59,561 nt of DNA from a bacterium (GTDB lineage: Bacteria > Patescibacteriota > Saccharimonadia > CAILAD01 > BJGX01): the NCBI GenBank assembly GCA_029778565.1, contig JAKOQC010000247.1, forward strand, positions 1 through 59,561. Direction: 5' to 3'. The notes below the pieces were generated by a model. The model made no database searches and was not told the origin of the DNA. It saw nothing but the letters and a program-made list of their open reading frames with translations. A program made the position numbers and the translations under genes. This document shows, in pieces, positions 3,745 to 34,567 of the stretch (its first letter is position 1; every line of letters starts with the position of its first letter).

Positions 3745-6700
3745 ATGGCGGACGCTATAGAGCCAGGTAAAAATGAAGTTATCAACAAGGCCCGGGCAGA
3801 AAAGGGGTTTGTTGATTTTGTGCATTTACATACTCACACTCACTATAGCCTGCTCGATGGCTTGCAAAAGATACCAGACTTAGTTGACCATATTGAAGGT
3901 CTGGGGCAAACTGCTTGTGCCATTACCGACCATGGTACGCTCTCTGGTGCGATAGAGTTTTATAAGGCGTGCAAAGAGAAAGGTATAAAACCAATTATTG
4001 GTATCGAAACATATGTTGCACCCCGTACTCATTTAGACAAAAATAGCGCCGAAGACAGAACACCGTTTCACCTTACCTTGCTTGCCGAAAACATGCAGGG
4101 CTACAAGAACTTAATGAAGCTCAGTACCATAGCCAATCTCGAGGGATTTTATTATAAGCCCCGGGTAGACCATGACCTACTCGAGAAATACAAAGAGGGT
4201 ATTATAGTACTTTCTGGCTGTGCGGGTGGTGAGCTTGGCAGCAAGATACTCGATAATAATTATGCCGAAGCCAAAAAAACTGCCGAGTGGTATAAGAGCG
4301 TTTTTGGCAAAGACAATTATTTCTTAGAGCTACAACCACATACCGAAGATTTTCAACAAAAAGTTAATGAAGGAATAAAGAAACTTGCCAAAGAGCTCGA
4401 TCTTAATTTAGTAGCAACCGGTGACTCGCATTATTCTGTTTCTGACCAACACTATGCGCACGATATTTTGCTATGTGTACAGACCGGTAGTACGGTGGAT
4501 GATGTAAAACGTATGAAGCTGGATATGGATCTCTCAGTAGCACCAGGCAGTCATTTTGCTGAGTTCTTTAAAGATGTACCCGAGGCAGTGAGCAATACAG
4601 TAAAGATAGCCGAGCGCTGTGAGATTGATATTGAACTCGGCAGGATTCTGATTCCTCGATTTCCTGGTGTACCGAAAGGCAAGACAGAGAAATCTCTATT
4701 GCGCGAGATGGTCTTTGCAGGCGCCGCCAAACGATATACCGATATGGAAGGTGATGATCTGAGCGAAGCTAAGGTAAAACCAAACCTACCGGCCGAAGTG
4801 CTCGAAAGAATTGAATATGAATTGAAAGTAATTGGCGATATGGGTTATGAAGGCTACATGCTGATTGTTTCTGACCTCATTAATTGGAGTAAGGCACAGG
4901 GCATTGTTTGTGGCCCGGGGCGTGGTTCGGCGGCTGGTAGTATTATTGCCTATGCCACTGCAATTACCGAGCTTGATCCGCTTAAGTACGATTTGCTCTT
5001 CGAGCGGTTCTTAAACCCCGATCGTATTAGTATGCCAGATATTGATATGGACTACGCTGATGATAGGCGAGAAGAAGTTATTAATTATGCCACCGAAAAA
5101 TATGGTCAAGAACGGGTAGCTCAAATTATTACCTTTGGTGTAATGGCCGCACGTAACGCCGTGCGCGACACGGGTCGCGTGCTGGGCCTGCCGTATGGTG
5201 AGGTGGATGCCATTGCCAAAGTAATACCAGCACCGATTCAGGGTAGACATATTCCGCTAAAAAACTCGATTGTTGATAACCCAGAACTAAAAGCAGAATA
5301 TTCTAATAATCCCAAAGCTAAACAAGTAATCGATATTGCTATGCAGCTTGAAGGTACTATTCGTAATGCCGGTACCCATGCAGCAGGTGTGGTGATAGCG
5401 CCAGAAAATTTAGTAGAGTACGTACCACTTACCCGGGCTAGTAAAGGTGGGGTTGCCACACAATACTCTATGAACCCTATTGAAGAGCTTGGTTTGTTAA
5501 AATTCGATTTTCTCGGACTCTCTAACTTAACAATTATTAAAAATACCCTGCGTATCATTAAAAAAGTGTATGGCAAAGATATTAATGTAAACGAAATTCC
5601 GATTGATGACAAAAAGACCTACGATTTGCTAAGTAGAGGAGATACTACCGGTGTCTTCCAGCTAGAGTCGGCCGGTATGAAGCGCTATATTCGCGATCTT
5701 AAGCCAGATAGATTTGAAGATATTATTGCCATGGTAGCCCTGTATCGGCCAGGCCCAATGCAGTGGATAGAAGATTTTATTAACAGAAAACACAACCCTG
5801 GGCTTATTACCTATGGCCATCCCAAAATGGAGGAAGCACTAAAGAATACCTACGGAATTATTGTGTATCAAGAACAAGTTATGCAAATCGCCAAAGACTT
5901 ATGTGGATTTACTGGTGGCCAGGCCGACACCCTACGTAAAGGTATCGGTAAAAAGATTCCCGAAGTGATTGCTAAGATGAAGCAAGAATTTATTGATGGT
6001 GCTATTAAAACAAGCCAAGTAGAAGAGAAGTTTATTAATGATTTATGGAAGAGCATTGAAGATTTTGCGGCCTACTGTTTTAACAAATCACATGCTGCTT
6101 GTTACGCTCTTATTAGTGTGCAGACAGCGTACTTAAAAGCGCACTATCCATCGGCTTTTATGGCGGCTTTGCTTACCTCAGACCACGAAAACCTAGACCG
6201 TATTGCTATTGAAGTAACCGAATGTCGTAAGATGGAAATAGAACTTCTGCCACCAGACATTAACGAAAGTTTTGCCGAGTTTGCTGTTGTGCCAGAGACC
6301 GGTAATATTCGGTTTGGCCTAGGAGCAATTAAGAATGTTGGCATGGGGCCAATTGAGATAATTTTGGCTGCACGCAAAGAAGGTGGTAAGTTTCAGAGCC
6401 TCGAAGATTTTTGCAAACGAGTAGAGGCAAGTGCCATTAACAAGAAAGTAATGGAATCACTTATAAAGTGCGGTGCTTTTGATAGCATGGGCGATCGCGA
6501 CACTTTGCTTGAGAGTGTAGAAGTAATTACAGGCTATGCGTCTCGTTTGCAAAAAAATGCTCTCAGCGGACAGATTGATATTTTTGGCTCGATGGGCAAG
6601 CCCGAAGAAACCCCACCGCTAAGATTAGTTCCGCCTAGTAGTAAAGTAGATCCCCGCACACATTTAATGTGGGAGAAAGAACTTATGGGGTTGTTTGTTA

Positions 6701-32712: not shown

Positions 32713-32799
32713 GCCGCGGTGGTGGAATTGGTAGACACGCCAGCCTTAGGAGCTGGTGAGGTAACACTCGTGGAGGTTCAAGTCCTCTCCGCGGTACCA
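32713..32799 (+). tRNA. tRNA-Leu (anticodon TAG), CCA encoded
   Basis: Hand-folded cloverleaf. Acceptor GCCGCGG/CCGCGGT, anticodon loop CTTAGGA, long variable arm, T arm GGAGGTTCAAGTCCTC and terminal ACCA. Confidence 0.9.
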
Positions 32800-33567: not shown

Positions 33568-33596
33568 TTGACACAGTTTATTTGTTTTGCTACAAT
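33568..33596 (+). promoter_or_regulatory. consensus sigma70 promoter driving the large noncoding transcript
   Basis: TTGACA (33568-33573), exactly 17 nt, TACAAT (33591-33596). Confidence 0.7.
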
Positions 33597-34149
33597 CGTA
33601 ATCGCGTTTTTGAACCTTACATTTGCTGCCCTAGAGAAAATCTTGTGCAGCGATAACCAGTTTTTTCTAGAGTATTCACTAGCTTGAATGCACGGTTTGA
33701 TTCGCCTCATAAAGAATCTGGTTATCGCTGCAGAATGTAGCAACAGAAGTGTCACCGCAGTGTTCTGCGCCCCGCGAGTAATCGCGCCCTGCCCACAGGG
33801 GATCGGTGGAGTTGTTGTGTGCCCCAGAACCACACACTTGCAACTTTACCTTAATGGTCAGGTATGGGATAAACTACCAGGCTGCGGTGACACGCCAATC
33901 AGTGCCGGCTCGCCGAGAAGCGGGCGAGTACAGCGGATCGCCTGTAAATGGGGGTCTTCGCGAGCCGGCACGATTCTCCGCGCGCTAGCCTTGCCAGCTG
34001 AGCCATCTCCGGGTGGGGCCAATGCGAGCGGATGCGCCTGAGAGACCGAAGCTGTTCCAAAACGGCTGAGGTGCTAGAAGAGAGTGACCTACTCCAAAAC
34101 CACTCTTGCCCCGGTCTCTCGGGCGAAATCGAAACAGGCAACTGTTTCA

Positions 34150-34221
34150 GGGGACGAAGTTCTTGTGGAAGAACACCCGCCAGTTGGTGGGAGGTTGGTG
34201 GTTCGACTCCACTCGTCTCCA
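34150..34221 (+). ncRNA. tRNA-like module embedded in the large RNA (Ala/tmRNA-type acceptor, no canonical anticodon loop)
   Basis: Acceptor GGGGACG/CGTCTCC with G3-U70 and discriminator A. D arm GTTC-TTGTGGAA-GAAC. Anticodon arm CCCGC-CAGTTG-GTGGG has only a 6-nt loop, or forms a 6-bp stem with an AGTT tetraloop. 5-nt variable region. T arm GGTGG-TTCGACT-CCACT. No encoded CCA. Confidence 0.6.
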
Positions 34222-34368
34222 CTGGTAGTACAATCTCGACGGCGGGTTCTTCCTGTCACCGGCGGAAAGATTGTGCTCCATACCGGCTTCGGGTCGGGTT
34301 GCATTAAGGCGTGATGTTCGCTACTAGCGCCTTATGTGTAGCCCGGCTCGTTGCCGGACCATCTCGAG

Positions 34369-34396
34369 CCTCAATACATTCGTATTGAGGTTTTTT
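34369..34396 (+). terminator. rho-independent terminator of the large RNA
   Basis: CCTCAATAC-ATTC-GTATTGAGG followed by TTTTTT. Confidence 0.8.
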
Positions 34397-34493
34397 CTTA
34401 CCCGAAAAATGTTGAAGTCAGCGATGTATTATGATACATTTATAGGCATGAATACTGTTAAAACAGCTTGGTTTTATTTTACAAACTCTGTGT

Positions 34494-34567
34494 CTCGCCG
34501 AGGTGTTTTAAGCTAAACTCTAAATAATACGTATCAATGTAAGCCTCGGCGAAAGCCGAGGTTTTTT
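34494..34567 (+). promoter_or_regulatory. terminator/antiterminator (attenuator-like) leader upstream of the 34630 operon
   Basis: Terminator CCTCGGC-GAAA-GCCGAGG plus TTTTTT at 34544-34567. The upstream segment CTCGCCGAGG (34494-34503) can form 9 bp with the 5' arm of the terminator (34544-34552). Confidence 0.5.

Follow-up and report, generated by a model that had tools for sequence, protein, structure and literature searches.

An anticodon-less tRNA-like element with an alanine-type acceptor stem, embedded in a predicted large non-coding RNA of Candidatus Saccharibacteria

The stretch of DNA analysed here (positions 1 to 59,561 of contig JAKOQC010000247.1, assembly GCA_029778565.1; the whole 59,561 nucleotides are referred to below as the window) comes from a member of Candidatus Saccharibacteria, within the Candidate Phyla Radiation (CPR), and its closest genomes are metagenome assemblies of that group with a tig 91-92% identical to that of the window. 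A series of genes comprising purF, rsmD, an aroA-like gene and tRNA-Leu is followed by a stretch poor in open reading frames (ORFs) and this, in turn, by an Nfu_N-like gene, tig, clpP, a gene for an MFS transporter, and rpoB/rpoC. The ORF-poor stretch holds a unit of approximately 800 nt (33597-34398, forward strand, as are all of its parts) that is predicted to be a structured, Saccharibacteria-specific non-coding RNA, bounded by a predicted promoter and a predicted terminator between tRNA-Leu(UAG) and tig. Within this unit, 72 nt at 34150-34221 adopt the form of a tRNA cloverleaf that has no anticodon; this element, hereafter the module, starts approximately 550 nt after the predicted start of transcription, and the U tract of the predicted terminator ends approximately 175 nt after it. 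An earlier note on this DNA had placed the module in the same way within a large transcript, and its figures agree with the unit as delimited by the predicted promoter and terminator.

The letters of the module were checked against the window. Its acceptor stem pairs GGGGACG (34150-34156) with CGUCUCC (34214-34220) over seven base pairs, none of them mismatched; these include G3-U70, the identity pair of alanine tRNAs, and the discriminator at 34221 is A (A73). Following A8A9 (34157-34158), the D arm (34159-34174, GUUC-UUGUGGAA-GAAC) has a loop containing GG and is able to zip up to 6 bp, leaving a GUGG loop. A single A then leads to the arm at the anticodon position (34176-34191, CCCGCC-AGUU-GGUGGG), which is closed, either as 5 bp with a 6-nt loop or as 6 bp with an AGUU tetraloop. 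The variable region is AGGUU (34192-34196, 5 nt), and the T arm (34197-34213, GGUGG-UUCGACU-CCACU) has a loop of the UUCRANY type. The module is followed by CUGG, hence no CCA is encoded; the nearby tRNA-Leu gene encodes its CCA. Three methods picked out the cloverleaf independently. ARAGORN reported it at 34150-34222 as 'tRNA-??? anticodon (gt)', the supposed anticodon being of 2 nt, and made only one other call in the window, tRNA-Leu(TAG) at 32713-32799; the Rfam tRNA model gave 38.5 bits, above its gathering score of 29, with E = 2.7e-6 for a search over 1.2 kb; and the RNAalifold consensus of five close relatives yielded the cloverleaf unprompted. It is likewise present in the minimum-free-energy (MFE) fold of the whole 801-nt unit. 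The earlier note had read this segment as a cloverleaf with a 7-bp acceptor stem, G3-U70, discriminator A, a D stem, a 5-nt variable region, a T arm, a closed and non-decoding anticodon arm, and no encoded CCA; the letters, ARAGORN and Rfam agree with that reading, and the zipped hairpin is the form of the anticodon arm that is conserved in relatives. With tRNA-Ala, the module has in common the cloverleaf with 7-bp acceptor, D and T arms, together with G3-U70 and A73. Neither the module nor its relatives contain a 7-nt anticodon loop with U33 and an NGC anticodon, and U8 (with A14), a residue nearly universal among tRNAs, is absent, the window and most relatives having A8A9. These observations support the identification of the module as a real, embedded, non-decoding tRNA-like element with an alanine-type acceptor stem.

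Homologues were sought by synteny, on the contigs where homologues of tig lie. A search pattern written for the DNA of the module, in which G3 and U70 were fixed, added L041, L097, L131, L066 and L020 to these related loci, and the set that is unbiased for pair 3:70 is the synteny-derived one (the window clade, L012, L013, L134, L135/L137, L010 and L008); the comparison covers approximately seven independent lineages. The earlier note had named lack of conservation at homologous loci as evidence that would speak against its reading; at least seven lineages of Saccharibacteria have the module at the corresponding locus (tRNA-Leu ... tig-clpP), and it is kept there even where the tig protein is only 57-65% identical to that of the window. 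It is absent from some tig-bearing loci (L006, L136 and L145). Homologues of the large RNA lie at the same locus in L001, L002, L041, L097, L012 and L013, of which L041 and L097 are close relatives. The RNA measures 1.39 kb in L012, 0.87 kb in L013 and approximately 0.43 kb in L134, L131 has a short form, and L135 and L137 have a version with additional modules. In an 8-mer comparison, the module was the sole block with sequence conserved across all lineages, the remainder of the RNA being conserved within clades. The layout common to the lineages, judged by eye, consists of a 5' long hairpin, '..AGCA..', variable domains, the module and a terminator.

Between the window and L001 and L002, the four-fold degenerate sites of tig are saturated (43 and 38% identity, respectively), while the 5' part of the module (positions 1-26) is identical at 25-26 of 26 positions and its 3' part (the last 30 nt) at 27-28 of 30. 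This near-identity outside the closed arm, at a distance where four-fold degenerate sites are saturated, indicates purifying selection on the module, and with it the earlier suggestion of a 'remnant', in the sense of a decaying pseudogene, was set aside. The closed arm is identical at 8 of 16 positions, and its pairing is never lost. Pairs were counted over 13 aligned modules, with a tool for the acceptor and T stems; the D arm and closed arm were tabulated by a hand segmentation that reproduces the genomic sequences, because the MAFFT alignment was out of register between clades. All acceptor-stem cells are paired (100%), with pair 2:71 being G-C in seven modules and C-G in six, and pair 7:66 G-C in 11 and A-U in two. 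Three pairs of the T stem have changed on both sides, and compensatory changes are also seen in the closed arm. The covariation score was 0.347, compared to 0.128 for shuffles and at most 0.092 for slid partners. Pair 3:70 is G-U in 13 of 13 modules and also in L010 and L008; counted over the synteny-derived lineages, G3-U70 is present in all seven and A73 in six (L008, with G73, is the exception), and modules of non-Ala type in the same transcripts have a Watson-Crick 3:70 pair. Across relatives, the closed arm ends in AGUU, CAUC, UUCG, CUCG or GAAA tetraloops, in triloops, or in an expansion of 35-90 nt, and in none of them does it form a 7-nt anticodon loop. As judged by these sequence comparisons, the closed arm is selected only for its pairing, with sequence and length free to drift, and the module is a conserved, selected, non-decoding derivative of a tRNA-Ala-type gene.

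The more distant relatives bear on its origin. At L010 (3469-3925), a single unit upstream of tig, delimited by a terminator, contains four tRNA-like modules in a row: in the first, 57 nt are inserted at the anticodon position; the second is alanine-type, with an arm of approximately 90 nt that contains GCA AAC CGC CUU CGG GCU UAA (ANRLRA-stop); the third is like tRNA-Lys(CUU); and the fourth has a closed arm with a GUAA tetraloop. At L008 (4559-4917), again upstream of tig, a module with a 6-nt loop, a tRNA-His(GTG), an acceptor/T-arm module and a near-canonical tRNA-Ala-like gene are preceded by a 5' long hairpin like that of the window RNA. The tRNA-Ala-like gene (4842-4917) is the least derived relative. 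Its D arm, variable loop and G3-U70 are those expected of tRNA-Ala, but it has G73 and an 8/6-nt loop; it resembles tRNA-Ala and not ssrA, and the origin of the module would most simply be a tRNA-Ala paralogue. Two relatives lie in other contexts. In L066 (reverse strand, 1-620), an alanine-type module with a 40-nt branched arm lies approximately 375 nt beyond the 3' end of a 16S rRNA, with a terminator after it. In rRNA operons this region is often occupied by spacer tRNAs, and the L066 module appears to be an anticodon-less stand-in for such a tRNA. In L020 (reverse strand, 448-519), a stand-alone alanine-type module of 69 nt, with a closed arm of 5 bp and 3 nt and an encoded CCA, occurs in an unrelated context. 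As a separate observation, the 16S rRNA of L066 ends in GGAUCAUUUUUU in place of the usual anti-Shine-Dalgarno CCUCC.

Homologous units also carry what are probably genuine tRNAs: tRNA-Phe(GAA) in L135 and L137 (61 bits), tRNA-Lys(CUU) in L012 (3456-3528, after the module; 67 bits), the tRNA-His of L008, and a tRNA-Trp in L144. Whether the tRNA-Lys of L012 is a working tRNA is uncertain, given its two U-U acceptor mismatches and an A-C mismatch in the anticodon stem. Further anticodon-less tRNA-like modules, some with non-Ala acceptor stems, accompany these in the sister transcripts. The ARAGORN labels tRNA-Arg(tcg) in L002 (2145-2219) and tRNA-Pyl(cta) in L041 (2067-2141) apparently represent misannotations of the anticodon-less module. 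Matches to the DNA pattern elsewhere in metagenomes were discarded as genuine tRNA-Ala(UGC/AGC) genes, many of them in tRNA arrays of 15-19 genes, as ordinary class II tRNAs taken out of register (the marine class), or as unrelated high-GC sequences (L084 and L130). Some soil-metagenome tRNA-Ala(UGC) genes, e.g., those of L014 and L034 within 15-19-gene arrays, share the GGGGACG acceptor and the unusual A8A9 with the module; position 14 is U in L014, which would swap the usual U8-A14 pair.

The resemblance to tmRNA claimed by the earlier note held only superficially. The alanine-type acceptor stands, and the Rfam tmRNA model (RF00023, gathering score 47) matched two relatives below threshold, L020 with 38.1 bits and L010 with 21.9 bits; these matches involve the tRNA-like ends only, with the interior deleted in both, and that to L020 aligns end-to-end. 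A closed stem at the anticodon position, a T arm and the absence of an anticodon are further features that the module has in common with the tRNA-like domain of tmRNA. Against identity with tmRNA, ARAGORN called a tmRNA neither in the window nor at any of the related loci on which it was run. The module also differs from tmRNA in its regular D stem and contiguous cloverleaf, in being embedded in a larger transcript, in mostly lacking an encoded CCA, and in having a least derived relative that is tRNA-Ala-like. No mRNA-like domain with resume codon, tag frame and pseudoknots was found, its position in the window being taken by a 16-nt hairpin. A permuted tmRNA was rejected on the strand order, which is tRNA-like with the 5' strand first, as was a candidate tag frame in the window (ANASGCA-stop), which is broken by an indel in L002. 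The sequences thus indicate that the module is not a complete tmRNA.

Among other known systems, the GOLLD RNA carries tRNAs in a linker (Kretsch et al., 2025, PMC12286853; reviewed in PMC12990946), and a tRNA-Phe in J13/15 of the Mycolicibacterium GOLLD is cited in that review (PMC12990946). The RNA described here is similarly a large, ornate bacterial non-coding RNA (GOLLD being of ~800 nt or more) with an embedded tRNA-shaped module, neighbouring tRNA genes and a 5' region that is variable, and the sister transcripts of L135 and L137 likewise contain tRNA-Phe. It differs in that its module has no anticodon and lies near the 3' end instead of in a central linker, and in its housekeeping chromosomal locus, with no phage, prophage or tRNA-array context. 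The GOLLD and ROOL models matched neither the window nor any of the 13 related loci scanned, the permissive E-value mode included, and OLE, HEARO, raiA, RNase P RNA and group I/II introns were rejected in the same way, with no Rfam match in gathering or permissive mode (window and related loci scanned). The mascRNA and menRNA are tRNA-like 3' ends of the vertebrate MALAT1 and NEAT1 transcripts, which are excised by RNase P and RNase Z and receive a CCA. Like them, the module is a cloverleaf situated within a long non-coding transcript and has a small anticodon arm that does not decode, and the same processing is predicted for it by analogy; unlike it, they are eukaryotic and nuclear, have no alanine identity and are unrelated in sequence, and their cleavage has been demonstrated where that of the module is predicted. 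YrlA is also a bacterial non-coding RNA with a tRNA mimic, in which T and D arms are combined with a truncated anticodon side, but its acceptor-like stem runs into a Ro-binding stem while the 7-bp stem of the module is free-ended. YrlA is not known to be an RNase P substrate. The YrlA model (RF02553) reached 17.9 bits against a threshold of 69, and no Rsr or other TROVE-domain protein was encountered among the window ORFs scanned. Spacer tRNAs and the t-elements of plant mitochondria provide tRNA-shaped sites for RNase P/Z cleavage in longer precursors, as would the L066 module in its 16S trailer. Spacer tRNAs are functional decoders, however, whereas the module is non-decoding, and t-elements are organellar and are not known to retain an aminoacylation identity pair. 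By analogy, the closest systems in working principle would be mascRNA/menRNA, spacer tRNAs and t-elements, and in anatomy GOLLD with its linker tRNAs. In chemistry they would be the tRNA-like domain of tmRNA and the tmRNAs of jakobid mitochondria, which reportedly lack the mRNA-like domain. The best description of the module is a tRNA-like element within a long non-coding RNA, the RNA family in question being absent from Rfam 15; no RNA of this kind from Saccharibacteria or the CPR was described in the literature searched.

The proposed function of the module is to provide the transcript with a cutting site of its own for RNase P and RNase Z, the product of which could be alanylated, and the probability of this proposal is put at roughly one half. 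It would be handled as a pre-tRNA by the tRNA-maturation enzymes of the cell: RNase P would cut 5' of G34150, and RNase Z or an equivalent would cut 3' of A34221, to leave a structured 5' RNA of approximately 550 nt, the tRNA-like RNA of 72 nt, and a 3' piece of approximately 175 nt. The 72-mer would then gain CCA and could be alanylated, though it would be unable to decode. The anticodon arm is the part of a tRNA that RNase P, RNase Z, the CCA-adding enzyme and alanyl-tRNA synthetase (AlaRS) can dispense with, the substrate rules of the last two resting on the acceptor/T minihelix and G3-U70. The acceptor stem that the module retains is 7 bp long, free at its end and stacked on a T arm; the discriminator is unpaired, both flanks are single-stranded, and the 3' trailer of the module starts with CAAAG..., like the trailers of the co-transcribed tRNAs, which also lack an encoded CCA. 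Processing of this class of transcript by RNase P and RNase Z is likely in the sister species, since the tRNAs embedded there would need to be excised, and it is these tRNAs, the features kept for recognition by the enzymes, and the tRNA-like trailer that lead to the prediction of cleavage at G34150 and after A34221. That G3-U70 is strictly retained, and A73 in every lineage except one, suggests, in addition, that the CCA tail and alanylation are used and not just tolerated.

Several points weigh against this proposal. With its end a single base upstream of G34150, the preceding hairpin could make it harder for RNase P to bind the leader. In L001, L041 and L097 the T stem consists of just four pairs, and L135 and L137 have a D loop without GG and an altered T loop, so that the canonical elbow is not maintained everywhere. 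A pure processing role would leave the strict retention of G3-U70 unexplained; in this regard, L041, L097, L131, L066 and L020 were found with a pattern that itself fixed both residues. Finally, the promoter and terminator are consensus predictions.

The first of two alternatives, each considered unlikely and to the same degree, is that the released module is itself a functional alanine-accepting RNA, with the flanking RNA serving as leader and trailer. As it also needs processing, it overlaps with the cutting-site proposal. Such an RNA might be a tmRNA cut down to its tRNA-like domain for ribosome rescue, or an alanine donor for cell-wall cross-bridges or lipid alanylation. It would account for the constancy of G3-U70 and, in six of the seven synteny-derived lineages, A73, while pairs 2:71 and 7:66 changed by double substitutions, and for the Watson-Crick 3:70 of the non-Ala modules in the same transcripts. 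The module is also the only sequence-conserved core of the family; L020 is stand-alone, with its CCA encoded and its end-to-end match to the tmRNA model; and AlaRS charges even microhelices that bear G3-U70. The short or altered T stems of several lineages are, however, hard to square with use by EF-Tu or the ribosome, and loss of the anticodon is not specific to alanine, as non-Ala anticodon-less modules share the transcripts. In addition, strong sequence constraint also acts on the flanking RNA in the clade of the window, and no SmpB, Fem-type or MprF-type gene was detected among the window ORFs scanned. An extended form of this idea, in which the processed, CCA-tailed and alanylated 72-nt module would be an anticodon-independent carrier of alanine for ribosome rescue or non-ribosomal alanylation in these CPR bacteria of ultra-small size and the ornate flanking RNA would control its production, is regarded as slightly less likely again.

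The second alternative, as doubtful as the first, is that the module is not cleaved at all and acts within the large RNA as a structural or protein-binding tRNA mimic, by elbow docking, recruitment of a tRNA-binding protein or protection of the RNA, in the manner of the tRNA-like domain of YrlA or the tRNAs in the GOLLD linker. For the latter, storage of tRNAs away from maturation has been proposed (PMC12286853, PMC12990946). The surrounding RNA is large, ornate and, in the window clade, highly conserved, a hairpin lies directly against the acceptor stem on its 5' side, and the weak match to the YrlA model lies over the T arm. That score is far below its threshold, however, and no flanking pairing extends the acceptor stem; with the discriminator and flanks single-stranded, there is no obvious shield from RNase P. 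As the module alone is conserved across lineages, a conserved intramolecular docking partner is unlikely.

An element without function, be it a pseudogene of tRNA-Ala or ssrA in decay or a cloverleaf that arose by chance, would be in keeping with the lack of an anticodon and CCA, A8 in place of U8 and the degenerate T stems of some relatives, but it is highly improbable in view of the near-identity of the non-arm parts across saturated genomes, the compensatory changes of the closed arm and of the acceptor and T stems, and the syntenic retention of the module alongside strongly diverged tig proteins. Least probable of all is a reading of the whole RNA of approximately 800 nt as a tmRNA that has escaped recognition or is permuted, its tag frame lying outside the tRNA-like domain: the G3-U70 acceptor, the purines at positions 8-9, the sub-threshold Rfam matches and the ANRLRA-stop of the L010 arm are outweighed by the negative ARAGORN result, the tRNA strand order, the tetraloop that shuts the position of the mRNA-like domain in the window, a 5' extension from the acceptor end that would be incompatible with ribosome entry, the loss of the ANASGCA-stop frame in L002, and the lack of conservation across lineages outside the module.

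Very few non-coding RNAs are known from the CPR; this family would add a class of them that is large (0.4-1.4 kb), structured and specific to the phylum. It would also offer a natural dissection of tRNA, in which the acceptor stem and T arm are frozen while the anticodon arm varies freely, and it raises the questions of whether bacteria have mascRNA-like tRNA mimics that process long non-coding RNAs, and whether anticodon-less, alanine-accepting RNAs exist beyond tmRNA. In practical terms, erroneous calls of tRNA-Arg and tRNA-Pyl would distort the tRNA inventories of metagenome-assembled Saccharibacteria genomes.

The unit that contains the module has an MFE z-score of -10.4 relative to shuffles, and an Rfam scan of it, permissive filters included, returned no family except tRNA. 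Protein coding was rejected, the ORFs at 33688-34041 and 34032-34307 being interrupted in relatives by insertions of 150-245 nt and other indels. The predicted sigma-70-type promoter (33568-33596, forward strand) consists of TTGACA, a 17-nt spacer and a TG-extended TACAAT, with 11 of 12 hexamer positions matching; its -10 element and the first ~35 transcribed bases are unchanged in L001 and L002. A 5' long hairpin domain at 33623-33743, identified by RNAalifold, has the outer helix UUGCUGC/GUAGCAA and an inner helix of 15 bp without mismatch (33646-33660 with 33718-33732); a 5' long hairpin and then ..AGCA.. also occur, as judged by eye, in L012, L013, L131, L134, L008 and L066. The second domain (33745-33894), closed by the helix AGAAGUGUCACCGCAG / CUGCGGUGACACG, is divergent in L002. 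It is followed by an insertion site at 33893-33896 (window ~33895), where relatives have an extra segment of approximately 245 nt (L001), 210 nt (L002) or 150 nt (L041). These extra segments (L001 ~2412-2655; L002 ~1680-1890) are structured, mutually dissimilar and located exactly between the second domain and the 3' core, marking an insertion hot spot. The conserved 3' core (33895-34130) comprises three helical sub-domains with an invariant loop CUACUCCAAAACCAC at 34089-34103; RNAalifold found compensatory changes in it with three and with five sequences, and long blocks are invariant in the three and near-invariant in the five while neutral sites are saturated. The hairpin one base 5' of the module (34131-34148, GAAACAG-GCAA-CUGUUUC) has one compensatory pair. 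On the 3' side, a hairpin at 34227-34277 has a conserved loop UUCCUGUCAC at 34250-34259, the motif CGACGGC..UUCCUGUCAC..GGCG being common to the window and L012, and a long imperfect hairpin (34283-34357) precedes the predicted intrinsic terminator. The latter (34366-34398 including the U tract; hairpin 34366-34393) has a 12-bp stem and a 4-nt loop, with compensatory changes in L041 and L097.

With respect to the genomic setting, blastn gave no match that would indicate a phage or plasmid origin, and a scan of viral contigs returned a real tRNA-Ala(GGC) and unrelated sequences. Two candidate protein partners were rejected: a 168-aa ORF upstream, which matches nothing in Pfam and lacks conservation at this locus, and the Nfu_N-like gene downstream, which goes with the RNA only in the clade of the window. 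Apart from the large RNA, the region 34448-34564 contains a conserved ORF of 22 codons, MNTVKTAWFYFTNSVSRRGVLS, near-identical in L012 and similar in L013, which lies directly after a promoter-like site, before a terminator (34541-34564), and upstream of the Nfu_N-like gene. Its UCGCCGAGG can pair with the 5' arm of this terminator, CCUCGGCGA, at -20.3 kcal/mol before the 3' arm is made, and the region resembles an attenuator of the leader-peptide kind, through which the availability of aromatic amino acids (W-F-Y-F) would be sensed.

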